Shown piece by piece: positions 124-12,668 of a DNA stretch of 45,195 nt (position 1 is the first letter of the stretch; each line of letters begins with the position of its first letter). A model generated the notes under the pieces. It was not told the DNA's origin. It searched no databases and saw only the letters and a program-made list of their open reading frames with translations. The stretch is from NCBI GenBank assembly GCA_018260615.1, contig JAGWDQ010000087.1:1-45195 (forward strand), given 5' to 3'. The position numbers and the translations under genes are program-made. This stretch comes from Candidatus Altarchaeum sp. (GTDB taxonomy: Archaea; Altiarchaeota; Altiarchaeia; Altiarchaeales; Altiarchaeaceae).

Positions 124-1311
124 TTAAATTTCCAGTTTCCGCTGTTTAAAAGGTATAAATTTCTCAGGAACAAATTCCTTTTGCCTGTCAGCATATTTTC
201 CCTCCCCATAAATGCAAAAACTCAACCGCGAAATTTCCGCCTTCTTCAGTGCCTTTGCAAGTTCTGAAATTTCCTCTATTTTGTAAATTTCATTATTTGA
301 AGCAATCATCGCATCGTATTCTTTCAGCCGTATTTCCGGCAAATCAGCGAGCAGATAATCATAAGGAATGTTCAATGCATCGCAAATTTTGCATTCAAAT
401 TTTTTCTCATCGTCTTTAACATCTCCACAAAAAATTTCCCCTATTTCTTCGTATTTCGCGACATAAAACCGCTTGAATAAATTTCTGTTTTTTATGCGGG
501 TTAAAATTTCTTTTATGTATGGATTTGCAGTACTCTCATTAGATTTATTTTCCAGAAAATTTAATAAATCGCAGTCATCCATTTCCGATAATTTTTCAAT
601 TGTTAAATTTTCTTTTGCATAGTCATAAGCCCTTGAAAACATCTTTTCGGCGATCCGTTTTGTGTGATGTCTGTAAACCGTCTGGTGCATCATATTTCTC
701 GCTATGAGCAATTTTTCTACTGCTTCCAATCCGCCTTCGTCAATGACTAAATTTTTTTTGTCCGATTTTATGCAGCCGATTATCCGGTCAATATCAATAA
801 TCCCGTAAGCAACTCCTGCATAATACGAATCCCTGATTAAATAGTCCATCTTGTCAACATCAATATCCGATGAGATAATTTTTCCGTAAATGCCTTTTCC
901 GAATATAAGGTCTGTGATTTTGTTTACATTAATTCCGTAAAAATTTAATATGTCTGTAATTTCGCTTTGTTTTATAAGTCGTGCGGAATTTTCCTCATGA
1001 GAGAAATTTTTTATTTTTAAAAGATGCGAGAACGGAAGGTGGCCCGTATCGTGCAGTAATCCCGCGAGACGCAAATCCTGTGTGTCTTCTTTACTTAAAT
1101 TTAAGTGCATACCAACTTTTCCTGCCAGATACATCACACCAAGAGAATGTTCAAATCTTGTCGCATTCATAGCAGGATAAACAATATAAGCGAGTCCGTT
1201 CTGTTTTATTCTCCGCAGTCGCTGCATTTGCGGAGTGTCTAAAATTTTTAATTCAGCTTCGGTTAATTCAATGTCCTTGTGGATTGGATCGCGGATTATT
1301 TTGGAATCCAT
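124..1311 (-). CDS. HD-superfamily metal-dependent phosphohydrolase (SAMHD1/dNTP triphosphohydrolase-like)
   Basis: Motifs IRDPIH, RLRRIKQNG, TRFEHSLGVM, LLHDTGHLPFSH (HD) and IDVDKMDYLIRDS typical of the family. Confidence 0.9.
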   Translation of the reverse strand: MDSKIIRDPIHKDIELTEAELKILDTPQMQRLRRIKQNGLAYIVYPAMNATRFEHSLGVMYLAGKVGMHLNLSKEDTQDLRLAGLLHDTGHLPFSHLLKIKNFSHEENSARLIKQSEITDILNFYGINVNKITDLIFGKGIYGKIISSDIDVDKMDYLIRDSYYAGVAYGIIDIDRIIGCIKSDKKNLVIDEGGLEAVEKLLIARNMMHQTVYRHHTKRIAEKMFSRAYDYAKENLTIEKLSEMDDCDLLNFLENKSNESTANPYIKEILTRIKNRNLFKRFYVAKYEEIGEIFCGDVKDDEKKFECKICDALNIPYDYLLADLPEIRLKEYDAMIASNNEIYKIEEISELAKALKKAEISRLSFCIYGEGKYADRQKEFVPEKFIPFKQRKLEI

Positions 1312-1430
1312 TTTAAATTTCTAAATTTAGGTTTATTTATGTTTAAATTTATATGTAAAAAATTTATCTTACAAATATAATTACTTATTTTTACAATTAA
1401 ATTTTACAATTAAATTTCACTATTGGCAAC

Positions 1431-2627
1431 ATGGATGCAGAAAAACTCAAAGAAATAATAAGGAACGGAGAAAGTTCTACCGTTGAATTTAAAGAAACAC
1501 TCACCTATAAATTGCCCCTGGAGAAGGAAATCGTCGCATTTTTAAATTTAAGGGGTGGGAAAATTTTGATCGGGGTTAGTGATGATAAGGATATTGTGGG
1601 GATTGATGAGAAGGAGTTAAAAGATATTGAGGAAAAGATTATGAATAAATGCAGGAGTGTTGTAAAGCCGGAAATAATTCCGATATATGAGACGGTTTTT
1701 GTTGACGGAAAGTATGTCGTTGTTTTGGAGGTTCGCGGAATTGATAAGCCGTACTATGTCTTCAAAGATGACAGAAAAACATATTATATCAGGGTGGGAA
1801 CAACGGAGAGAGAGGCAACGAGGGAAGAGTTAAAGAGGTTGTTTCAGGCATCGGGGATGATTCATTATGAAGAGAATCCGGTTTTCGGAAGCAAACCTGA
1901 AGATCTTGATATAAAAGAGATAGAAAAGTATTTTATAGAAAAGAGAAATATAGATACCTCTAAAATGAATAAATATGAAAGGACAAACATACTTATTAAT
2001 GCGGGAATCCTCTGTAATGTTGAAGGAGAAATTTTATGCTCTGTGGCAGGTATTCTTTTATTCGGGAAAGAACCTGCAAAATTTCTTCCCCAGTCAGGAA
2101 TGATGTTTGCACATTTTGACGGGAATGAAATTTCAGGTAAACTGACAGATAGAAAAGAATTAAAAGGAACACTTGTTAAGAATATAGAAGAAATGGTGAA
2201 TATTATTAACTTAAATTTACCTGAACAATCAGAAATACAGGGCTTAAAAAGGGTTGAAAAGGTCTTATATCCCTGCGATGTCATAAGGGAGGCAATTGTA
2301 AATGCGTGTGCTCACAGGGACTATACTATTTTTGGATCTAAAATTATGGTTTTTCTTTTTAACGACCGGCTTGAAATAAAAAGCCCGGGAAAATTGCCGA
2401 ACAGCATAACTATAGAAAATATAAAAATCGGAAGGTCCGTTCGCAGAAATCATTTAATTGCCCAATTCCTCAATGATTATAGATATATGGAGAAGTTGGG
2501 GCTGGGGATACGTATGATTATAAGAGAAATGAAAGATTTATCCGGAATAGAGCCGGATATTAAAGAAGAAGGAGAGGAATTTATAATCATTTTGTATAAA
2601 AAGAGAGAAAATGATGAAAATGAGTGA
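1431..2627 (+). CDS. AlbA_2 (Schlafen-like) domain plus C-terminal HATPase_c_4/RecG-C-like domain protein
   Basis: N-terminal GESSTVEFKE and IVAFLNLRGGKILIGVSD (AlbA_2); C-terminal IREAIVNACAHRDY, SPGKLP, RNHLIAQFL, MEKLGLGI. Confidence 0.88.
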   Translation: MDAEKLKEIIRNGESSTVEFKETLTYKLPLEKEIVAFLNLRGGKILIGVSDDKDIVGIDEKELKDIEEKIMNKCRSVVKPEIIPIYETVFVDGKYVVVLEVRGIDKPYYVFKDDRKTYYIRVGTTEREATREELKRLFQASGMIHYEENPVFGSKPEDLDIKEIEKYFIEKRNIDTSKMNKYERTNILINAGILCNVEGEILCSVAGILLFGKEPAKFLPQSGMMFAHFDGNEISGKLTDRKELKGTLVKNIEEMVNIINLNLPEQSEIQGLKRVEKVLYPCDVIREAIVNACAHRDYTIFGSKIMVFLFNDRLEIKSPGKLPNSITIENIKIGRSVRRNHLIAQFLNDYRYMEKLGLGIRMIIREMKDLSGIEPDIKEEGEEFIIILYKKRENDENE

Positions 2628-5157
2628 CGAGGGGAATGAAGAAATGAAAGAAGGAAAAAAGTATGCCGTATTTGTTTGCATTGATTATGTCGGTTCAACA
2701 AAACTCATTGAAACATTGGGAGAAAAAGAAGCAGGGAGAAGGATAAATTTTTACAGGGATACGGTTGACAGAATTTTTGAAAATTTTAAAGGCATAGGAA
2801 AGGGATGGAGCGGCGAGGGAAATTTCTTTTTTTTCTTTTATTCGGAGGAAAATAAAGCAATTGAAGATAATGCTGTCCAGGCGGCAATAAGATGTATCGC
2901 GGACTTAAGAACAGGAATTGATGTAGAGATTTCTGCAAGAATCTCAATAGGTTCGGGAATTATTGAAGCTGGGAAGGATTTGGGAAAAATAACTTCGCAT
3001 GAAATTTCACTTACAGGACATATTAATTCTGCATGTCCGGAAAATTCGATTTTAATTACTGAAAATGTTTATTTTGGACTTTCAGAGGAATTAAGGCATA
3101 AATTTAAAATTTGCGGAACAACAAAAAGAGATAATGTGCTAACCTTTATTTATCCCGTTGAAAAGAAGGATAAAGTAAAAAGAGAGGAATTTTTGGATGA
3201 AAGGGATGATTGGTCAAAAGATTATTTTAATTACATTAAATTTATTGAAAGTTCCAATACAACTTTACTAGTTACAGGTATAAGGCAGATAGAAAAGATT
3301 CCGACTTTAGACCTTGAAGAAGGATTTTTTCCAATAAGATTGACAAAAGCAGAAAAAAGAATATTTACTCCCGAATTGCTGGAAAGGGAACTTGAAAAAG
3401 AGAAAACTATAAAAAATATAAGAGAAACTGCTGTGTCGCGTAATTTTCTTGATGTGCTTAAAACAGACAAACACATTGTAATTTTAGGCGATCCTGGTGC
3501 AGGAAAGACAACCATTCTCAAATATATTGCACTTATGTATTCAAGAGGACTGAAAAAGATCTATGAAAAATTTGGCTTTGAGGAATGCTTACTTCCAATT
3601 CTTGTTCCTGTTTCTGCGATATACACTTTAATGGAAAATGGAAATAAGTACATCCTTGATGCCATTTGTGATTACTTCAAAACTCAGGGAATAGAAAATA
3701 TGGAAAAATTTATTAAGGAAAATTTAGATAAAGGAAAATGTATAATTTTGCTTGACGGAATTGATGAAGTTCCCACATATCAGGGAAGATTTTCAATAGT
3801 AAAAAATATTGAAAAATTTATAAAAAGGTACGGCAATAACCGGTTTATTATAACAAGCAGAATTATTGGATATGAAAGAATAAACATTGATTCAATAACC
3901 GAATACTATGTTTCTCAGTTAGATGACAATGAGATAAAAAAATTTGTGGATAATTGGTTTATGGCATTTGAAAAAAAGATTAATAAAAGTATGCCTGAAA
4001 GTGCAATTAAAAAGATTGTGGATTCCAATACAACACAATTAATAAATTCAATAAACGAAGATAAAAATATAAAGGATTTGGCGAGGAATCCGTTCCTTTT
4101 ATCATTAATTTGTTTGGTTCAAAAAAGCGGGTTTAAACTTCCAAGATACAGGGTTGAATTGTACAGAATTATCACAGAAACATTATTTGAGACATGGGTT
4201 ATGGCAAGAAATATTGGAGGTAAATCGTTGGTAGAAGCAAAGGACTATAAAGAAGGTGAAAAAGTTCTTGCTCCCATGGCTTTATGGATGCACGAAAATT
4301 GTCCTGGAGGAATTGGAAAGGAAGAGAAACTTAAAGAAAAGCTCATTGAAATAATGAAAGAAAGAGGGATTGCAGAAAATGAAGCAAGAAACACAACAAT
4401 TGAATTCTTCAAGTATCTTGCCGAGCAAACACAAATCATTATTCCGAAAGGAGGAGATTATTATGGATTCAGACATTTATCATTTGAAGAATTTTTGGCT
4501 GCAAGAGCGTTGATAATGAAAGAAAAATATGATAAATATTTAGAAAAATACAGCAAGGATCCGAGATGGACAGAGGTTTTTTTGCTTACAGCAGGATGGC
4601 TTGGAATCGTTGACGGAAGGGAAGAAGAAGTAACGAGAATTGTTGAAAGTTTAATGAAAAGTGAAAAATTAGGAGATTTGATACTTGCCGGAAAAATTGT
4701 TGCCGAAAATTTAGGTGTTAAAAAAGATGTTGGCAAAAAAGTAATAAATATGATTAGAAATAAATGGCTTTATAAATCTTTTGAATTTATGGATGTTGTG
4801 GATGTAAGGGCGGAAATAATAGAGAAAATTTTTGAAAAAACATTATTAAGGGATGAAGGAAAAGAGACATATGAAAAATTTATTGAGATATTAAAGAACA
4901 AGGGAGAAAACGAATTGATGCGAGAACGTGCAGCAAATGGTTTATGTTCCTTACTCAGAGAAGATGCAAACATCAAGGAAATTTTTATTGAGGTATTAAA
5001 GAACAAGGGAGAAAACAAATTCGTGCGAGGAAGAGCAGCATTCTATTTATCTTCATTAATTAAGGAAGATGCAAACATCAAGGAAATTTTTATTGAAATA
5101 TTAAAGGATAAATATGAAAGTAAAAAACTAAAAGAAACAATAAGAAAACATATTTAA
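2611..5157 (+). CDS. Class III nucleotidyl-cyclase-like domain + NACHT (STAND) NTPase + C-terminal HEAT/ARM-like repeats
   Basis: Cyclase-like VCIDYVGST, WSGEG, RISIGSG, NSILITENVY; Walker A GDPGAGKTT; Walker B IILLDGIDEV; ITSR; NPFLLSLI; FRHLSFEEFLAA; 35-aa helical repeats at the C-terminus. Start could be 2611, 2614 or 2620; overlaps the upstream gene. Confidence 0.85.
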   Translation: MMKMSDEGNEEMKEGKKYAVFVCIDYVGSTKLIETLGEKEAGRRINFYRDTVDRIFENFKGIGKGWSGEGNFFFFFYSEENKAIEDNAVQAAIRCIADLRTGIDVEISARISIGSGIIEAGKDLGKITSHEISLTGHINSACPENSILITENVYFGLSEELRHKFKICGTTKRDNVLTFIYPVEKKDKVKREEFLDERDDWSKDYFNYIKFIESSNTTLLVTGIRQIEKIPTLDLEEGFFPIRLTKAEKRIFTPELLERELEKEKTIKNIRETAVSRNFLDVLKTDKHIVILGDPGAGKTTILKYIALMYSRGLKKIYEKFGFEECLLPILVPVSAIYTLMENGNKYILDAICDYFKTQGIENMEKFIKENLDKGKCIILLDGIDEVPTYQGRFSIVKNIEKFIKRYGNNRFIITSRIIGYERINIDSITEYYVSQLDDNEIKKFVDNWFMAFEKKINKSMPESAIKKIVDSNTTQLINSINEDKNIKDLARNPFLLSLICLVQKSGFKLPRYRVELYRIITETLFETWVMARNIGGKSLVEAKDYKEGEKVLAPMALWMHENCPGGIGKEEKLKEKLIEIMKERGIAENEARNTTIEFFKYLAEQTQIIIPKGGDYYGFRHLSFEEFLAARALIMKEKYDKYLEKYSKDPRWTEVFLLTAGWLGIVDGREEEVTRIVESLMKSEKLGDLILAGKIVAENLGVKKDVGKKVINMIRNKWLYKSFEFMDVVDVRAEIIEKIFEKTLLRDEGKETYEKFIEILKNKGENELMRERAANGLCSLLREDANIKEIFIEVLKNKGENKFVRGRAAFYLSSLIKEDANIKEIFIEILKDKYESKKLKETIRKHI
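4882..5106 (+). repeat. 105-bp (35-aa) intragenic tandem repeat, two full units plus a partial third
   Basis: attga(g/a)(a/g)tattaaag recurs at 4882, 4987 and 5092; gaagatgcaaacatcaaggaaatttttattga is repeated verbatim. Confidence 0.9.
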
Positions 5158-5172
5158 AAACCTGAAAATATT

Positions 5173-5553
5173 TTAGAATTCGTTTTTTATGCAAAGATTC
5201 ACTCTTTTTCCGTGTTTGTTGTATGCTGCCACATCTTCAAGACATTTATATGGCTTTTTCACTATCAAATTTACTCTGTATTTTTCAAAAAAATTTAAAT
5301 CCGCCCGAGACGGAGTGAAACATTCATTCGGATGGCTGTGTATGGAACCAATTGCGTTAATTCCTATCGGAACCATCCACAAATCAATTGAGGAAAATGT
5401 ATCGCCAAAGGTAGTGTTCGGAATTATGTAAATTTCGTTCAAAGCATCATTTTCTTCCGAAAGTAATGCTATAAATTCCTTCGGGTAGAAATTTTTAGAT
5501 GCCTCAAGGATAAATCGGAGACATTTTTCCGTGATGAAATTTTCATCTTCCAT
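5173..5553 (-). CDS. JAMM/MPN+ metalloprotease (Mov34 family)
   Basis: N-terminal E (KEFIALL) and H-x-H-x7-S-x2-D motif IHSHPNECFTPSRAD. Confidence 0.88.
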   Translation of the reverse strand: MEDENFITEKCLRFILEASKNFYPKEFIALLSEENDALNEIYIIPNTTFGDTFSSIDLWMVPIGINAIGSIHSHPNECFTPSRADLNFFEKYRVNLIVKKPYKCLEDVAAYNKHGKRVNLCIKNEF

Positions 5554-5616: not shown

Positions 5617-6372
5617 ATGGAAACAAAATCATCTGTCAGATTGGTTGAAACGAAATGTCTAAATTTTAAAAATCTGGTTGTTATTATCGGATTTCCCGAT
5701 GTCGGACTTGTCGGGACAATAGTGGCGCACTACATCATAGACGAATTAAAATTAGATGAAATCGGACACATTGAATCGCAGTTGTTTCCGCCAATTCTCG
5801 TGGTTCATAATGAAAAGATACAGAACATAATACAGATTAACGGAAATGAGCATGTAATTGTCTTTACCTCCGAAATACCCATTCCTTTGGAAATTCTTAA
5901 TGATCTGGCGAATGCAATTATAACATGGCTCACTGCAAAAAAAGCGGGAATGACCTATATAATAGGCGGAATGCCAAATCAGAACCGGCTTGAAATGAAA
6001 AACATTGCCACTTATGCTATTCCGACAACATCTCGCGCATCGGCAATTTTAAATAAGGGAAATTTACAGTTATTTGATGAAGGCGTCATTATGGGAATGA
6101 ATGCGTTATTTTTAAGAAAATTTTTTGAGGAAAAATCAGACGGCATAGCTTTACTGGCGGACTCATTCCTTGCTTTTCCCGATCCCGAATCATCTGCTGT
6201 TGTAATTGAAAATTTAAACAAAATGCTCGGATGGAATATTGACATTAAAAAACTCATAGAGAAAGGAGAGGAAATACGGCTAAATGCGCGCGACTTGATG
6301 AAAAGAACAAAGGAAAATTTAAACAAAATGCGTGAGCCGAAGGAAGAGGAAATTCCGATGATGTATCGCTAA
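5617..6372 (+). CDS. Proteasome assembly chaperone, PAC2 family
   Basis: IIGFPDVGLVGTIVAHYII, ESQLFPP and FPDPESSAVVIE motifs; 251 aa. Confidence 0.88.
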   Translation: METKSSVRLVETKCLNFKNLVVIIGFPDVGLVGTIVAHYIIDELKLDEIGHIESQLFPPILVVHNEKIQNIIQINGNEHVIVFTSEIPIPLEILNDLANAIITWLTAKKAGMTYIIGGMPNQNRLEMKNIATYAIPTTSRASAILNKGNLQLFDEGVIMGMNALFLRKFFEEKSDGIALLADSFLAFPDPESSAVVIENLNKMLGWNIDIKKLIEKGEEIRLNARDLMKRTKENLNKMREPKEEEIPMMYR

Positions 6373-6412
6373 ATTTTCAGGTATAAATTTTATTGATGTT
6401 ACTTATTACAAA

Positions 6413-6748
6413 ATGAACGATGCAGTTGAAATTTTTAACAATGAAAGTTATGTTGAACCGCTTGTCCATATCGGCGAATCAGACGCTCAAATTGTTGTGA
6501 TGATTGACCTGCCGTGTGTCAGGAAAGAGGATATTGACTTAAAGGTGAGCGAAAAAGCGGTTGAGATAAAGACCATAATAAAAACGACGATTAAAAATAA
6601 ACGAGGTGTGAAATTTTGTCTTTTTCATAAAATTATAGACCTTCCGGCAAAGATAGTTCGGGAAAAAGTAAAGGCAAAATTTGAAAAAGGCATCTTGCTG
6701 ATAACACTGCCAAAAGAAAGGACGAGCAAAAGGATAAAAATTGAATAA
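6413..6748 (+). CDS. Small heat-shock protein (Hsp20/alpha-crystallin)
   Basis: VMIDLPCVRKEDIDL and AKFEKGILLITLPK alpha-crystallin motifs. Confidence 0.85.
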   Translation: MNDAVEIFNNESYVEPLVHIGESDAQIVVMIDLPCVRKEDIDLKVSEKAVEIKTIIKTTIKNKRGVKFCLFHKIIDLPAKIVREKVKAKFEKGILLITLPKERTSKRIKIE

Positions 6749-6757
6749 AAATAAAAA

Positions 6758-6832
6758 CGGGCCTGACGGGATTTGAACCCGTGATCTACAGCTTAGAAGG
6801 CTGTCGCCTTGTCCAAGCTAGGCTACAGGTCC
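6758..6832 (-). tRNA. tRNA-Arg(UCU), no intron, CCA not encoded
   Basis: Reverse complement GGACCTGTAGCCTAGCTTGGACAAGGCGACAGCCTTCTAAGCTGTAGATCACGGGTTCAAATCCCGTCAGGCCCG; anticodon arm ACAGC-CTTCTAA-GCTGT; T-loop GTTCAAATC. Confidence 0.95.
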
Positions 6833-6923
6833 ATAAAATTTAATAAAATTTAAATTTATTGAACAACTATTTAAATTTATTTATAAATTTATTTAATAAT
6901 TTATATTTGTGAAATAAATTTAA

Positions 6924-6931
6924 TTTATAAT
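6924..6931 (+). promoter_or_regulatory. Putative TATA box (TTTATAAT) about 21-28 nt upstream of the ATG; identical copy at 8640-8647
   Basis: Position fits an archaeal promoter for a leaderless mRNA; the ~45-bp upstream segment is conserved in both tandem paralogs. Confidence 0.5.
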
Positions 6932-6951
6932 ATTTAATTTAACCGTTCAAA

Positions 6952-8634
6952 ATGAACCAAATATTTTTTAAATCCAGACTGATTGCATTTTTGATGTTTT
7001 TTGTGATGTTTGTATCTGCAAATGTAAGTGCTTACGAAATAGAAAGCAACTTGTGTAAATGTACTTCCTGTGAGGATTGCACAGATGCATTACATAATAA
7101 AGCGTGTTCTGTTGTTCAACTAATAATAGACCTGACAGAATCAACAATGGGAAAAAGCAGTGCAAGTTGCATCGTTAATCCACCATTTTCAGATGGAAAA
7201 ACATTTGATTGTAATAATCATAAAATAGAACGATGCCCGACTTGTGGTCAGAAAGACACATACGGGGTGTATTTAAGAGACAAGAAAAATATGCTCATAA
7301 AAAATTGCAATATTATAAATTTTGATATTGGAATAGGTATTTATTCATCATCAGATATAAAGGTAACAAATAATAAATTTTCTAACGGACATACCGGTGT
7401 TTATCTTAACGGGACAACAAAATGTGATATTGAAGGCAATGTCATTGGAAATATGGAAAATGGAATACATCTTTCAGAGTCCGATTATAATACCGTCGCA
7501 AACAATGACCTTACAGGCATTAAGGGGAATACCGCAATGGCTATATTTTTAGAAGAATCATCTGAAAATTTAATAAAAAACAATAACGCAAACGGAAAAA
7601 AAGAAAAGGGGATATTTTTAAAGGAATCAGATGATAATACAATAAATGGAAATTCTGTTAATGAGTGTACTGTCGGAATACAAATAGAACATTCTTCATC
7701 CAATAATATATCGGAAAATAAAGGGAGTAACTGTCAGGAATCAGCAATTTTACTCACATATTCCTCAAAAAACAAAATATCAAAAAATAATGTGAATTCA
7801 AACAAAAAATACGGAATACAACTTCTCAGGTCAGATAAGAATTTAATAACCCTGAATGAAATGAAAAATAATATATTTTCTTATGGTTTGTCTGTTGAAT
7901 ACTCATCAGATAATAATATATCGGAAAACTTAATTTTATCAAATCGTGCAGGAATACACAGCACACAAAGTAAAAATTTTATATCTGGAAATAAAGTATG
8001 CCGAAATAAAGAGTATGATTTTGACTCTTCGGACTGGATGAAATCCGAAGGATACAACAATTATTGTGATATTTCGGGCGTATGGAATGACATAAATGCA
8101 AGCAGATGTAGCAAAAAATGCAAATGTGAGTCAAATGATGAATGCAACGATGATGAAAGTTGTAAAAATGCGGGATGTGAAAAGTTAAAATGTGGTAAAA
8201 TTTATGAGCATAAATGTGTTGAATGTTTAAATGACAGCGACTGTCCAAAATCTGAGAAATGTGCAAACAATAAGTGCAAACTGAAAGATGGATTTTGTAA
8301 TAGTAACAAGGATTGTAAAAGTGATGAGAAATGTGAAAATAACAAATGTATGCAATTGGAATGTCCAAGCAATGAAAAACCGGAAGAACATAAATGCGTT
8401 CCGAAAGAGACGAAGGAAGAAAAAACTACAAATGAGACAAACATAATAAATAATGTAAGTGATGGAAAAGAAAAACCAAAAGATGAATCGCAAAATTTAC
8501 TGCCTTTAATTCTGCTGGTAATTATTGTGATAATCGTGCTTTACTTTTTATTCGGAAGAAAAAAAAATACCAAAAGCACAAATGTTAAGGAGAAACCTAA
8601 AGAAGTTAAAGGGGGAGAAAATTTAAAAAAATAA
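6952..8634 (+). CDS. Membrane-anchored surface protein: signal peptide, right-handed beta-helix (PbH1/NosD-like) repeats, Cys-rich repeats, C-terminal TM (paralog 1)
   Basis: Hydrophobic N-terminus ending NVSA|Y; GIxLxxSxxNxIxxN repeats; C-x4-[DE]C-x5-C-x4-C modules; TM LLPLILLVIIVIIVLYFLFG followed by a basic tail. Confidence 0.85.
   Translation: MNQIFFKSRLIAFLMFFVMFVSANVSAYEIESNLCKCTSCEDCTDALHNKACSVVQLIIDLTESTMGKSSASCIVNPPFSDGKTFDCNNHKIERCPTCGQKDTYGVYLRDKKNMLIKNCNIINFDIGIGIYSSSDIKVTNNKFSNGHTGVYLNGTTKCDIEGNVIGNMENGIHLSESDYNTVANNDLTGIKGNTAMAIFLEESSENLIKNNNANGKKEKGIFLKESDDNTINGNSVNECTVGIQIEHSSSNNISENKGSNCQESAILLTYSSKNKISKNNVNSNKKYGIQLLRSDKNLITLNEMKNNIFSYGLSVEYSSDNNISENLILSNRAGIHSTQSKNFISGNKVCRNKEYDFDSSDWMKSEGYNNYCDISGVWNDINASRCSKKCKCESNDECNDDESCKNAGCEKLKCGKIYEHKCVECLNDSDCPKSEKCANNKCKLKDGFCNSNKDCKSDEKCENNKCMQLECPSNEKPEEHKCVPKETKEEKTTNETNIINNVSDGKEKPKDESQNLLPLILLVIIVIIVLYFLFGRKKNTKSTNVKEKPKEVKGGENLKK
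8131..8483 (+). repeat. 353-bp block identical to 9850-10202
   Basis: Compared by eye from tcaaatgatgaatgc to gaaaaaccaaaaga; no mismatch seen, while flanking sequence diverges. Confidence 0.85.
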
Positions 8635-8667
8635 TTTAATTTATAATATTTAATTTAACCGTTCAAA

Positions 8668-10344
8668 ATGAACCAAATATTTTTTAAATCCGGATTGATT
8701 GTCGTCTTGATATTTTTTGTGTTTTTTGCGATGAATGTAAGTGCTTATGAAATGGAAAATAATTTGTGCAAATGCACTCACTGTGAGGACTGCACAAAGG
8801 CATTAGATGACGGAGCATGTTCTGTTGTTCAGCTTACGAGGGACCTGGATGAGTCCGTAATGGGAAAAAGCGGTGCGAGTTGTATTATCAATCCCGCATT
8901 CGGAAGCGGCAAAATTTTTGACTGCAATAACCATAAAATAGAAAGATGTTCGTCTTGCGGCCAGGACGAAAACACTTACGGAGTGTATTTAAGGGACAAA
9001 AAGGACATGACAATAAAAAACTGCAATTTTATAAATTTCAGAAACGGAGTAAATATTTATTCCTCCTCAAACATAAAAATAACAAATAATAAATTTTCCA
9101 GCGGATATGAAGGGATTTACATCAAGGAAGGAACAAAGTGCGCTCTTGAAAACAATGTCCTTAAAAATATGGAATTGACAGGAATACATCTTTTAAATTC
9201 TAATGGGAATTCTATCCGCAACAACGACCTTACAGGCATCACCGGAAATAGTGTGACTGCAATATTCCTGGAGAAGTCCGCTCAAAATTTAATAAAAAAC
9301 AATAATGCGAACGACAGGAAAGAAAGAGGAATATTTTTAAAGGAATCAAATAATAATACTCTCAATAAAAATTTTGTTAACGGATGTAATGTCGGAATAC
9401 AAATAGAATATTCTTCCGGAAATGATATATCAGAAAATAAAGCAAGCAAATGTATGGATTCATCAATATTTCTTTTACATTCGTCAAAAAATACCATATC
9501 AAAAAACGAGGCAAATTCAAACCAAAAATACGGAATGCAAATTTCCCAGTCAAACGAAAATTTAATAAGCAATAATGAGATAAAAAACAATGTGTTTTCT
9601 TATGGTTTATATATTGATTACTCCTCTGACAACAACATATCTGAAAATTTAATTACATCAAATCGTAAAGGAATATATAGCATCGGAAGTAAAAATTTTA
9701 TATATAAAAATAAGGTATGCTGGAATAAGGATTATGATTTTGATTCTTCAAAATGGATGGGATCGAGCGGAAATGATAATTGTTGTGATATTCCCGGCGG
9801 ATGGAATGACCTCAATGCGAACGGATGCAGTAAGAAATGTAAATGTGAATCAAATGATGAATGCAACGATGATGAAAGTTGTAAAAATGCGGGATGTGAA
9901 AAGTTAAAATGTGGTAAAATTTATGAGCATAAATGTGTTGAATGTTTAAATGACAGCGACTGTCCAAAATCTGAGAAATGTGCAAACAATAAGTGCAAAC
10001 TGAAAGATGGATTTTGTAATAGTAACAAGGATTGTAAAAGTGATGAGAAATGTGAAAATAACAAATGTATGCAATTGGAATGTCCAAGCAATGAAAAACC
10101 GGAAGAACATAAATGCGTTCCGAAAGAGACGAAGGAAGAAAAAACTACAAATGAGACAAACATAATAAATAATGTAAGTGATGGAAAAGAAAAACCAAAA
10201 GAAGAACCGCAAAATTTACTGCCTTTAATTCTGCTGGTAATTGTTGTGATAATTGTTCTTTACTTTTTATTCGGAAGGAAAAAAAATACCAAAGGCACAA
10301 ATGTTAAGGAGAAACCTAAAGAAGTTAAAGGAGAAAAAATTTAA
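8668..10344 (+). CDS. Membrane-anchored beta-helix/Cys-rich surface protein (paralog 2, tandem duplicate)
   Basis: Same architecture and co-linear with 6952-8634 at an offset of 1716-1719 bp. Confidence 0.85.
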   Translation: MNQIFFKSGLIVVLIFFVFFAMNVSAYEMENNLCKCTHCEDCTKALDDGACSVVQLTRDLDESVMGKSGASCIINPAFGSGKIFDCNNHKIERCSSCGQDENTYGVYLRDKKDMTIKNCNFINFRNGVNIYSSSNIKITNNKFSSGYEGIYIKEGTKCALENNVLKNMELTGIHLLNSNGNSIRNNDLTGITGNSVTAIFLEKSAQNLIKNNNANDRKERGIFLKESNNNTLNKNFVNGCNVGIQIEYSSGNDISENKASKCMDSSIFLLHSSKNTISKNEANSNQKYGMQISQSNENLISNNEIKNNVFSYGLYIDYSSDNNISENLITSNRKGIYSIGSKNFIYKNKVCWNKDYDFDSSKWMGSSGNDNCCDIPGGWNDLNANGCSKKCKCESNDECNDDESCKNAGCEKLKCGKIYEHKCVECLNDSDCPKSEKCANNKCKLKDGFCNSNKDCKSDEKCENNKCMQLECPSNEKPEEHKCVPKETKEEKTTNETNIINNVSDGKEKPKEEPQNLLPLILLVIVVIIVLYFLFGRKKNTKGTNVKEKPKEVKGEKI

Positions 10345-10345
10345 A

Positions 10346-10906
10346 TTGAATAGAAAAACAATTAAAGAATTTTTAAAGCCAGATTGGAAAAAGATTTTAA
10401 TCTTTGGGGTATTCGTATTTATTGCCGTTGGCGGCAGTATTCAGAGTTGGGCGTTTTCAGATATACCTCCAAAGCCGCCTTTATATGATGTTTTAGCTCC
10501 GTTTCCTTTTTGGACAACATGGATTTTTCTAATGATACCTCTCGGAATACTGACAGCACCTTTTAACTATATCGGTTTCTGTCTATTCTGTCCACCGTAT
10601 TTTTATCCGCTTGAAGCGATTTATTTTTATCTCCTTTCTTGTGCAGTGGTTTCTGCTTATCATTACAAAGACAGAATCAACAAGAAGTATTTCTTAATAG
10701 CGCTTCTCCCAATTATACTAATATTTTTTTACGAATTTGGTTCTTTTGTTGTATTCAGTGCATTTATGAATATTAGGGATGTATCCGCAACAGAGATTTT
10801 TTGGTTCGCATTTGCATTAATTGCGGTGTTTTTTGTGGTGGTTCTTTACACATATCTTATTTTTTGTCTGATAACATATTTATGGAATAAATTTTTCAGA
10901 CCTTAA
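10346..10906 (+). CDS. Hypothetical multi-pass membrane protein
   Basis: About five hydrophobic segments; a TTG start at 10346 just after the upstream TAA is preferred to the track start at 10253, which overlaps the upstream CDS. Confidence 0.65.
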   Translation: MNRKTIKEFLKPDWKKILIFGVFVFIAVGGSIQSWAFSDIPPKPPLYDVLAPFPFWTTWIFLMIPLGILTAPFNYIGFCLFCPPYFYPLEAIYFYLLSCAVVSAYHYKDRINKKYFLIALLPIILIFFYEFGSFVVFSAFMNIRDVSATEIFWFAFALIAVFFVVVLYTYLIFCLITYLWNKFFRP

Positions 10907-11711
10907 ATTTCACCTTCCCTTCAAAAACATACTTTGCACCCCCAGTCAAAAAAATTTCTTCTTCTCCTGCATTATTTTCATTTATCTCTACATTCAAATC
11001 CCCACCCCTCGCGTGAATTAAAAATTTCTTCTTCCCGTGCTTTTTATACATAGCATAAGATGCGGCACAAATTCCCGTCCCGCAGGCAAGTGTTTCATCT
11101 TCAACCCCTCTTTCATAAGTTCTTATTCTGAATTCATCATCGCCAAGGCGCTGGATAAAATGCGCATTTGCCCCGTTCTTAAACACATTGGAATTTCTTA
11201 TTTCCCTTCCCAATTCCTTCACATTTACATAATCAACATCGCTCCATGAAGTAATAAAATGCGGATTTCCGACATTAACATAATATCCGCTAAATCCGCG
11301 GGCGTTCATCTCGCTAAATTCTAATACCTTTCCCAAATTTACCTTAACCTCAAAGTCCTTATTTGTCTTTTTCGGAAAAATTTCCAAATTTAATATTCCC
11401 TTCAGTGTATCTGCTTTAATAAAATTTTTCTTTTCAATAAAATCATAAAAATATCGGGCAAAACATCTTATTCCGTTTCCGCACATCTCGGCAATACTTC
11501 CGTCCGGATTAAAGAAGTGAAATTTTGCATCCGCATCCTTATCCGGTTTTTGTAAAAATATCACTCCGTCGCTTCCTATTCCGAAATGCCTGTCTGAAAT
11601 TTTCTTAACAAAGTTGGACTTTTTATCTTCGGGAATTAAAATTTTGTCGTATTCGTTCACTAATACAAAGTCGTTTCCTGCTGCCTGCATCTTCACAAAC
11701 GGGATTTTCAT
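10896..11711 (-). CDS. dapF: Diaminopimelate epimerase
   Basis: KMQAAGNDF, GIGSDG, AEMCGNGIRC, VNVGNPH, RTYERGVEDETLACGTG. Confidence 0.96.
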   Translation of the reverse strand: MKIPFVKMQAAGNDFVLVNEYDKILIPEDKKSNFVKKISDRHFGIGSDGVIFLQKPDKDADAKFHFFNPDGSIAEMCGNGIRCFARYFYDFIEKKNFIKADTLKGILNLEIFPKKTNKDFEVKVNLGKVLEFSEMNARGFSGYYVNVGNPHFITSWSDVDYVNVKELGREIRNSNVFKNGANAHFIQRLGDDEFRIRTYERGVEDETLACGTGICAASYAMYKKHGKKKFLIHARGGDLNVEINENNAGEEEIFLTGGAKYVFEGKVKFKV

Positions 11712-11774
11712 TTTATTTATAAAGTTATAAATTTAATTATCAAAGATAAATTTTAAAAATTTTAAGACATAAAA

Positions 11775-12668
11775 TTGGATGTTCAAAATTCTAAACCATT
11801 GGTTTTGTTGGGATTAAATAAAGTCGGATGCAAAGGAATAAAAAAGCAAATAATAAGGGATGGCAATACACTTTATGCTGACATAGATGCGTATGTGGAT
11901 TTGGCAGGGGACAGGAAAGGAATTCACATGTCAAGGATTATAGAAAGCATAGATGAAATCATAGAAAAGATAGATAAAAAGGTAAATAACTGCGAGGACT
12001 TTTGTGTTGAAATTGCAAAGAAGATCATTGAGACGCAGAATGATGCCGAAAGGTCAGAAGTAAATTTAACTGCTGATTTCAGCACGCAACGGGATAAATT
12101 TGGAAAAAGTGTTGAAAAGATATATAAATTGCTCGCATCCGGTATTATAACAAAGAAAGAACACAATATGGAAGTCAGAAAAAAGATTGGCTGCAAAGTG
12201 CTTGGATTAAATGCTTGTCCGTGTGCACAGGAAACAATAAAACAAAGAACTGCTGAAAAATTAAAAAATTTCTTTAATAAACAGCAAACAGATAAAATTT
12301 TATCAGTAATGCCTTTGGCAACACATAACCAGAGAGCGGAAATTACATTAATTGTTGAGACGTCTGAAAACGAACATGTTGAACTTGAGGATTTGATTGA
12401 TGTGTGCGAAAATTCATTTAGTTCTGAAATTTTTGAGATGCTAAAACGACCCGAAGAGGCATCTGTTGTTGAAAATGCACACGCAAAGCCATTATTTGTT
12501 GAGGACAGCGTGAGAGAGGTTGCGGGAAATTTTTATAAAATGTATGGAAATTTAAGAAACGGAATTATAAATGTAAAGGTTAAGAGTTTTGAATCAATTC
12601 ATCCGCATGATGCTTTTGCGGAGTGTAAAATTTTAACAGATGACTTGAGGAAAATTTTTAAATACTGA
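11775..12668 (+). CDS. mptA: GTP cyclohydrolase MptA/FolE2 family
   Basis: KGIHMSR, NACPCAQ, ATHNQRA, PLFVEDSVRE, ESIHPHDAFA; TTG start. Confidence 0.9.
   Translation: MDVQNSKPLVLLGLNKVGCKGIKKQIIRDGNTLYADIDAYVDLAGDRKGIHMSRIIESIDEIIEKIDKKVNNCEDFCVEIAKKIIETQNDAERSEVNLTADFSTQRDKFGKSVEKIYKLLASGIITKKEHNMEVRKKIGCKVLGLNACPCAQETIKQRTAEKLKNFFNKQQTDKILSVMPLATHNQRAEITLIVETSENEHVELEDLIDVCENSFSSEIFEMLKRPEEASVVENAHAKPLFVEDSVREVAGNFYKMYGNLRNGIINVKVKSFESIHPHDAFAECKILTDDLRKIFKY

Follow-up and report, generated by a model that had tools for sequence, protein, structure and literature searches.

The stretch of DNA analysed here, hereafter the window (45,195 nucleotides; contig JAGWDQ010000087.1 of the Candidatus Altarchaeum sp. 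assembly GCA_018260615.1), carries two co-oriented plus-strand genes flanked on both sides by opposite-strand genes, as read from its open reading frames (ORFs). Gene 1 encodes a protein in which a Schlafen/AlbA_2 nuclease domain is joined to a GHKL ATPase, a pair of domains recently named the 'Schlatpase' supradomain (bioRxiv 10.64898/2026.05.29.728809). Gene 2 encodes a class III nucleotidyl-cyclase fold followed by a NACHT NTPase and HEAT-type repeats (Table 1). The reading frames overlap, and the overlap would shrink from 17 to 8 nt if gene 2 started at the ATG at position 2620. At related loci, the junctions were overlaps of 1-8 nt, mostly ATGA or GTGA, or gaps of 3 nt. A preliminary description of this DNA, made from its letters, had reported the co-orientation, the overlap and the opposite-strand flanks, all of which the ORF coordinates confirmed, and the motifs that it had quoted were found where it had placed them (ESSTVEFK in gene 1; IDYVGST, WSGEG and ISLTGH in gene 2).

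Table 1. Features of the two-gene locus and of its immediate surroundings in the window
Feature	Position	Strand	Description	Basis
Gene 1	1431-2627	+	398-aa Schlatpase: Schlafen/AlbA_2 nuclease domain and GHKL ATPase, no C-terminal helix-turn-helix	Pfam, AF2/Foldseek
SLFN/AlbA_2 domain	1470-1817	+	Residues 14-129; E14-x4-E19-x-K21, Schlafen-box-like VAFLN, D51	
GHKL ATP-binding core	2286-2594	+	N-box R-E287-x3-N291-x3-HRDY, SPG, G357-x-G359	
Gene 1/gene 2 reading-frame overlap	2611-2627	+	17 nt; translational coupling	
Gene 2	2611-5157	+	848 aa: cyclase fold, NACHT and HEAT-type repeats	
Class III nucleotidyl-cyclase-fold domain	2653-3180	+	Residues 15-190; D25, W66, E69, R110, S133, G136-H137	
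NACHT/nSTAND3 NTPase core	3424-3960	+	Residues 272-450; Walker A, Walker B D382/D385/E386, R417	
C-terminal helical HEAT-type repeat region	4528-5154	+		TRF, HEAT_2
HD + HD_assoc_2 gene (HD/dNTPase-like)	124-1311	-		Pfam
AT-rich intergenic stretch 5' of gene 1	1312-1430	+	Putative archaeal promoter region	Direct reading
Prok-JAB gene	5173-5553	-		Pfam

The two genes are paired across archaea and bacteria

In order to survey the neighbourhood of gene 2, one genome per prokaryotic species was searched with a profile of the N-terminal domain and NACHT, which returned 80 loci. Most of them were NACHT homologues lacking the N-terminal domain, because the pattern used fell within the Walker A region. 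The NACHT-only loci that had 1.3 kb or more of sequence upstream, 58 in all, were used as controls, and a Schlatpase gene was sought within the fetched flanks. Such a gene lay directly upstream and on the same strand in all 15 distinct loci with the N-terminal domain, which came from other genomes and metagenomes, and within the fetched flanks of none of the 58 controls (Fisher p 7e-16, a statistic that overstates independence because the loci are related by descent). The pair-bearing taxa were Altiarchaeota, Armatimonadota, Planctomycetota, Myxococcota and unclassified bacteria. Three homologues recovered by a protein search sat in unrelated neighbourhoods, each with a Schlatpase directly upstream. 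Four more metagenome representatives were checked; one was the same contig as L008 (L105), and the three new ones all had a GHKL-type gene upstream. In one of the three, this gene was a full Schlatpase and the locus adjoined PIN, HepT/MNT and BrxC-like genes. The preliminary description had staked its proposal on co-location elsewhere, which the surveyed and metagenome loci bear out.

The genes were separate in all loci surveyed, and the pairwise identities of the Schlatpases followed those of the NACHT modules (r 0.97, a value reached by none of 5000 Mantel permutations). The idea that the two genes are chance neighbours, with no functional link, can appeal to the general frequency of Schlatpase genes and to nothing else. 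The neighbourhood survey effectively refuted it, through the distribution of 15/15 against 0/58, the conserved order and strand, the overlapping junctions and the co-divergence, and we give it next to no credence. The two genes very probably form a functional unit. Interrupted copies were also encountered: the paired Schlatpase of an Armatimonadetes metagenome-assembled genome (L008 = L105, 141-1190) contains an in-frame stop, and the NACHT gene of Cystobacter fuscus (L010, 5487-6125 / 5860-8964) is frameshifted inside the cyclase-like domain. Both may be decaying copies or sequencing errors.

Gene 1 carries conserved nuclease and ATPase sites

Pfam assigned residues 14-129 of gene 1 to SLFN_AlbA_2 (PF04326; E 1e-24, 87.6 bits) and residues 302-388 to HATPase_c_4 (PF13749; E 8e-25, 87.1 bits), both above the curated cut-offs. 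Using the AlphaFold2 (AF2) model of the protein (pLDDT 86), the best Foldseek match was 3lmm, a structural-genomics protein (E 1e-20), and further matches comprised Schlafen 5/11/12/13/14 and SAMD9 nuclease domains. The C-terminal half matched the GHKL folds of PDK and histidine kinases. We then compared gene 1 with 12 partner proteins from other loci (28-64% identity). Throughout these 13 sequences, G13, E14, E19, K21, N39, G42, G43, G48, V49 and D51 of the SLFN domain and N291, H295, R296, D297, Y298, P319, G320, G357 and G359 of the GHKL core were invariant, and E287, the counterpart of the GHKL catalytic Glu, was nearly so. The E-x4-E-x-K signature that had been claimed for gene 1 is provided by ESSTVEFK (residues 14-21), with both Glu residues and the Lys among the invariant positions.

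The published hallmarks of the Schlatpase are E-x4-(D/E)-x-K, the Schlafen box and the GHKL catalytic Glu (bioRxiv 10.64898/2026.05.29.728809). Gene 1 can be assigned to this group, as it combines both domains with E-x4-(D/E)-x-K, a Schlafen box and the Glu and Asn of the N-box. Unlike most Schlatpases, gene 1 and its 12 partner proteins lack a C-terminal helix-turn-helix (HTH). Pfam recognised no cyclic nucleoside monophosphate (cNMP)-binding, SAVED, CARF or GAF domain in gene 1, and the top PADLOC match was a pAgo model, which aligned over the Schlatpase module (E 5e-24). Longer fused forms of gene 1 were represented by only three proteins of 718-775 aa with AlbA_2 and/or HATPase_c_4, none of them with NACHT, which is weak evidence. 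Among the Schlatpase paralogues of the same genome, which are mostly open frames of 455-485 aa and probably have a C-terminal HTH, gene 1 is the sole 398-aa, NACHT-paired member.

Gene 2 combines an intact NACHT core with a variable repeat array

The Walker A motif GDPGAGKTT occupies residues 293-301 of gene 2 and the Walker B motif LLDGIDE residues 380-386. Pfam nSTAND3 matched at 44 bits (cut-off 27.2), and NACHT at 25.3 bits, just under its cut-off of 26.7, with relatives scoring 38-53 bits. Walker A, D382, D385, E386 and the sensor R417 were invariant in 26 family members. In NCBIfam, gene 2 matched EruA only partially (47 bits, cut-off 1000), and no second copy of gene 2 was found in its own genome. 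Both the intact NTPase and the helical repeats had been predicted in the preliminary description. The former agrees with the Walker motifs, R417 and the nSTAND3 score, and the latter with a tandem repeat of 105 bp (35 aa), present in 2.2 copies at 4879-5106 according to Tandem Repeats Finder (TRF). HEAT_2 was weak in gene 2 (E 0.018) and strong in close homologues with more units (E 1e-32) as well as in relatives.

Close relatives differed in repeat copy number and had lengths between 829 and 1253 aa. The window may contain a collapsed version of the array, since the database twin of gene 2 ('Candidatus Altiarchaeales archaeon HGW-Altiarchaeales-1') has 917 aa compared with 848 aa here. The contigs of both metagenome samples break inside the 105-bp array (4957-5094), and one metagenome contig has 105 other letters between 4986 and 5167.

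The N-terminal domain of gene 2 is related to class III cyclases

Modelling of gene 2 residues 1-200 with AF2 (pLDDT 74, pTM 0.78) yielded a fold whose top 50 Foldseek matches in the PDB were all class III cyclases (E ~1e-9, TM 0.62-0.70); a Pycsar cUMP synthase was among the matches. A profile of the 50-sequence domain family recovered 3mr7 (E 3e-25) and Ma1120 (E 3e-21) from the PDB, together with the cUMP/cCMP synthases 7r65, 8jsz and 8jsf at ~1e-11. Only the profile search gave matches, as phmmer with residues 1-210 as a single sequence retrieved nothing from the PDB. Similarly, the class III cyclase family Guanylate_cyc (PF00211) of Pfam did not match the gene 2 protein at E <=0.1, indicating that the homology is at profile level only, and the PADLOC PycC match was weak (E 4e-5). 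The class III fold on which the preliminary description had also depended is supported by both the structural and the profile comparisons.

The motifs IDYVGST, WSGEG and ISLTGH lie at residues 24-30, 66-70 and 132-137. Alignment by hidden Markov model (HMM) to 3mr7 and Ma1120 identified D25 as the first metal Asp and placed E69 at the position of the second, just as had been read from the letters. It also placed S133 and H137 at the Asn and Arg of the transition-state N-x3-R motif, in agreement with the earlier assignment to ISLTGH; an alternative placement on N139...P143 was ruled out by the same alignment. R110 corresponds to the conserved Arg of the R-I-G-I-H strand, and G65 and K126 occupy the substrate-specifying pair, which is Lys/Asp or Glu/Cys in canonical cyclases.

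A library-wide search identified 360 relatives of the domain; among the matches listed, ~54 were proteins of 640-1250 aa that combine the N-terminal domain with Walker A/NACHT and HEAT. D25 was kept in 151 of 156 aligned domains, with no substitutions and five alignment gaps, and R110 was almost universal. His at the Arg position of N-x3-R was the subfamily norm (109/156). At metal site 2, Glu was present in 12 of the 14 close-clade members, the remaining ones having Lys and Asp, and all 142 domains outside this clade had Asp. Within the Altiarchaeal clade the domain was the most conserved part, with identities of 79/72/72/51% compared with 64/60/62/45% for the partner. Because of the subfamily and clade conservation at the metal sites, R110 and the His position, the domain is a conserved variant rather than a decayed copy, and it may or may not be active. 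Calling it 'degenerate', as the preliminary description did, was thus an overstatement. The domain of the archaeal copy probably still binds nucleotide and metal.

In contrast, five myxobacterial N-terminal domains that were clearly homologous (hhalign probability 99.7%, E 2e-25) lacked the first metal Asp and the G-H motif, and other catalytic sites were variably lost, while their partners and reading frames were intact. Since these members lost catalytic residues yet keep the partner, their residue patterns indicate that cyclase catalysis is not universally needed for the module. Of the alternatives put forward in the preliminary description, oligomerisation-gated cyclic nucleotide synthesis or a pseudo-cyclase acting as a nucleotide sensor or dimeriser, it is the second that gains support from the myxobacterial members. 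The nearest non-NACHT relatives of the domain include proteins with FHA, Guanylate_cyc and TCAD9 (ternary-complex-associated domain), such as P0046. This links the subfamily to the conflict systems of Kaur et al. 2020, in which cNMP cyclase domains, some of them inactive, are known from ternary systems.

The pair behaves as an accessory module

The gene 2 domain profile was present in three of the four genomes of the genus and in none of the 57 other genomes of the phylum, whose completeness of 57-97% leaves its absence from any single one unproven. A low-depth strain in a second groundwater sample carried the cassette with ~2-4% differences, and a high-depth contig of that sample joined position 1361 to position 5189, skipping exactly both genes, with other sequence possibly between. 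The dyad thus shows strain-level presence/replacement polymorphism. The fourth congener (G003:C57, L101:2081-3265, compared with window 1389-2554) had an intact 394-aa Schlatpase between HD and JAB and no NACHT gene. This solo Schlatpase is probably what sits at the skipped site in the high-depth strain. It was 67% identical to gene 1, with the first ~140 residues nearly identical and the rest much more diverged, a mosaic that suggests recombination at this locus. Altogether, the cyclase-NACHT gene was never found without its upstream partner and the Schlatpase can occur alone, an asymmetry that fits an effector with an accessory sensor or activator. The same asymmetry speaks against a toxin-antitoxin arrangement with the NACHT protein as restraint of the nuclease.

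The flanks differed in every lineage, and HD was common only to a congener. The HD/dNTPase-like gene had been proposed as a possible third component; its homologue flanks the pair only in the congeneric locus L006 and in genus genomes, so that it is better regarded as a neighbour, common solely to the congeneric Altarchaeum loci. The JAB gene was also rejected as a component, with no homologue at the surveyed loci L001-L085 and a position flanking the locus in congener G003. When 85 flanking ORFs of 15 loci were submitted to PADLOC, scattered single matches (UvrD/GajB-like helicase, IetA-like, mad6) were obtained with no enrichment.

Bacterial Schlafen proteins have published defence roles, and a conflict or defence role of the present module is likely. 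The alternative of a housekeeping or stress-signalling pair, acting for example in tRNA or RNA turnover under an NTP-dependent switch, would agree with the housekeeping flanks, the lack of defence-island enrichment and the many Schlatpase paralogues in the genome. However, it is hard to reconcile with the patchy spread over an archaeon and several bacterial phyla (including three of four congeners and 0/57 other genomes of the phylum), the strain-level polymorphism, the variable repeat number and the immune roles published for each constituent family, and we consider it highly improbable.

Regarding the surroundings, the intergenic stretch upstream of gene 1 contains the 13-bp sequence TTACAATTAAATT as two direct copies in tandem at 1391-1416; this repeat ends 14 nt before the start codon and may be a regulatory site or a chance occurrence in AT-rich DNA. 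The region downstream of the pair (5617-12668) holds ordinary genes, namely a PAC2 proteasome-assembly chaperone, HSP20, two NosD/beta-helix proteins, DAP epimerase and FolE2, and a tRNA-Arg(TCT) at 6757-6833. Among public sequencing runs, none of RNA was listed as containing this DNA.

Proposed mechanism

From what the data show, namely the pairing of the genes, their folds, the conserved residues and a patchy accessory distribution, we infer a scheme that extends to the trigger, the oligomerisation and oligomeric state, the docking, the RNA target and the role in defence. The best explanation, to which we assign about an even chance, is a co-inherited, translationally coupled NLR-type (bNACHT-like) conflict module with a Schlafen RNase effector encoded in trans and direct coupling between the two proteins. 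Gene 2 would be the sensor and switch, with the variable HEAT-type array recognising the trigger and the NACHT NTPase oligomerising, so that the N-terminal cyclase-fold domains would cluster. Gene 1 would be the effector, a metal-dependent Schlafen-type RNase most likely acting on tRNA, whose activity would depend on ATP-driven GHKL oligomerisation by analogy with SLFN-pAgo. The Schlatpase of SLFN-pAgo (RzAgo) cleaves tRNA after ATP-driven, GHKL-mediated tetramerisation, and RzAgo is the only case for which ATP-dependent oligomerisation and tRNA cleavage by a Schlatpase are known (bioRxiv 10.64898/2026.05.29.728809). The two proteins would be coupled chiefly through direct contact or proximity: once clustered, the cyclase-fold domains would dock the partner by its GHKL part and gather Schlatpase protomers into an active oligomer, resulting in RNA cleavage and growth arrest or abortive infection. 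In such a scheme, cyclase catalysis would not be essential to the module.

We slightly favour direct coupling, itself evenly poised, over a diffusible signal, which we rate as possible and somewhat doubtful, because catalysis seems dispensable, the partner has no recognised cNMP sensor, fusions exist and complex prediction adds weak support. Regarding the fusions, ACYC+NACHT, AlbA_2+HATPase_c_4+NACHT and HATPase_c_4+DrHyd+NACHT have been catalogued (Kibby et al., bioRxiv 10.1101/2022.07.19.500537, the last two in Table S1), and these last two show that proximity of a Schlatpase module to the N-terminus of NACHT is a working design. Regarding the complex, the Schlatpase and the cyclase-fold domain were predicted together with an ipSAE of 0.35 (0.32, 0.43 and 0.35 in the individual runs) compared with 0.00 for the best control. 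The runs agreed in at least 91% of contacts and the partner pLDDT was at least 80.

Several observations weigh against the proposed scheme. In the calibration of ipSAE, 58 of 80 solved complexes passed the mark, as did 2 of 110 mismatched pairs, and passes at or below 0.60 comprised 7 of the 80 solved complexes and both passing mismatches. The predicted complex is thus a weak pass that offers weak support, and no interface is reported from it. The cyclase-fold domain strongly conserved its residues of catalytic type (D25, the D/E at metal site 2, R110 and His137) outside Myxococcota, and in the Altiarchaeal clade it was the most conserved part of the pair. A domain that served only for docking would hardly be expected to show this, and ligand binding or catalysis is favoured instead. 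In addition, the two other new metagenome loci had GHKL-only upstream genes of ~250 aa with no detectable SLFN (L103:2985-3743, L102:171-992). These partners match the middle and GHKL part only (Schlatpase profile positions 131/145-393), L102 being bounded by a contig end, and because of them the RNase may not be the constant element of the module. The 2.2-Mb genome of this groundwater archaeon also holds ~20 Schlatpase paralogues (e.g. C86:3751-4938, C99:19381-20517, C23:5059-6189), and the flanks are mostly housekeeping genes that lend no defence-island support.

Class III cyclases need dimerisation, and the conserved residues could be read as signs of a second-messenger relay, in which NACHT oligomers would dimerise the cyclases and a cyclic or other nucleotide would bind the Schlatpase, perhaps in its GHKL pocket or middle domain, and switch on the RNase. 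Such a relay would account for the fold of the domain and its homology with active cyclases, among them the Pycsar cCMP/cUMP synthases, the retention of D25, D/E69, R110 and H137 across most of the subfamily, the high conservation of the domain in the archaeal clade and the weak PycC match. The Schlafen nuclease Cash, which is activated by cA4, provides a precedent (PMC13462974), and NACHT fusions place the Schlatpase beside DrHyd, another nucleotide-processing domain. However, S133, H137, G65 and K126 stand in place of the canonical Asn and Arg and of the two substrate-specifying residues, metal site 2 has Glu for Asp, and even Lys in one close relative, and Guanylate_cyc does not detect the protein itself at E <=0.1. 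Moreover, the myxobacterial members lack metal ligands yet have the partner, and this partner has no known cNMP-binding domain. We regard the relay as a doubtful alternative to direct coupling.

The roles could also be reversed, with the Schlatpase as sensor or regulator, for example of foreign nucleic acid via AlbA_2, and the cyclase-NACHT protein as an effector that would make a toxic or signalling nucleotide or deplete NTP. AlbA_2 domains bind nucleic acids, the GHKL part is constant in the partner even without SLFN, and cyclase-type domains have been proposed as effectors in other conflict systems (PAACC). Nevertheless, the variable-copy HEAT array lies where NLR-like proteins typically have their sensor, all 13 partners retain the SLFN catalytic residues without change and an entire clade has lost those of the cyclase, making this reversal very unlikely.

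Beyond the direct coupling that we favour, a more speculative view, which we consider rather unlikely, is that the cyclase-fold domain is an NLR coupling device, either exapted as a docking and activation platform for a trans-encoded GHKL-Schlafen RNase or as the maker of a nucleotide read by the GHKL pocket or middle domain of the partner. The dyad would then be a new, widely scattered defence system common to archaea and bacteria.

Comparison with known systems

In PADLOC-DB v2, no system had full-length matches to both proteins, the matches being partial or weak (pAgo model; PycC, 4e-5). Likewise, we found no description of a dyad of HTH-less Schlatpase and cyclase-fold-NACHT-HEAT protein in the literature searched, PADLOC-DB v2 and NCBIfam, and an earlier description elsewhere is possible. 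The preliminary description likewise knew of no named system with this pairing.

If confirmed, the dyad would add to the prokaryotic NLR-like immune proteins a conserved two-gene form with a Schlafen RNase in trans and a cyclase-shaped domain at the coupling point. Active-looking and pseudo-enzyme states of this domain both survive, in different phyla, and the presence of catalytic-looking and dead cyclase domains with the same partner constitutes a natural experiment on the passage from an enzymatic signalling domain to an adaptor. The dyad could be a route to how NLR oligomers switch on Schlafen nucleases, with a bearing on animal SAMD9 and Schlafen biology, and, if the GHKL pocket or middle domain of the partner did read a nucleotide, it would represent a new type of receptor for an immune nucleotide signal. 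It is one of few candidate NLR-type modules in the uncultivated Altiarchaeota, and its distribution provides evidence of exchange of the module between archaea and bacteria.

The PycC of Pycsar and gene 2 share the immune type of class III cyclase fold; however, PycC has no fused NACHT and the Pycsar effectors contain a domain that binds cNMPs, whereas the partner in the dyad has no such domain and the canonical catalytic set is altered. In Rv0386-type cyclase-STAND-TPR regulators, as in gene 2, a class III cyclase precedes a STAND NTPase and helical repeats. These regulators act on transcription, are of the MalT/AAA_16 kind with a LuxR HTH and are not known to have a Schlatpase partner. The Schlafen-Csx15 protein Cash of type III CRISPR is a prokaryotic Schlafen tRNase activated by oligomerisation under a nucleotide signal (PMC13462974), but it senses cA4 through a Rossmann-like Csx15 domain, a sensor that is absent here.

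SLFN-pAgo (RzAgo) has the same module of SLFN(AlbA_2) and GHKL (PF13749), with E-x4-(D/E)-x-K and an intact GHKL N-box; its sensor is an Argonaute core in cis, whereas in the dyad it would be a NACHT-HEAT protein in trans, with no guide RNA logic. Avs9 and SAMD9/9L likewise combine an AlbA_2 nuclease effector with a STAND NTPase and repeats, and the acidic site of AlbA_2 is required for toxicity in proteins of this type (PMC12680541). Those are single polypeptides without GHKL or a cyclase fold, whereas here the parts are split over two genes. The common layout of bNACHT proteins consists of an N-terminal enzymatic domain, NACHT and C-terminal repeats, and cyclase and Schlafen-ATPase modules are known there as N-terminal additions (Kibby et al.). 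In contrast, the Schlatpase of the dyad is a separate, strictly linked upstream gene, and it is a cyclase fold that takes the N-terminal position. Altogether, these comparisons suggest that the dyad is probably a two-gene variant, apparently undescribed, of the prokaryotic NLR-type immune systems, and that its parts are already known, also as fusions to NACHT.

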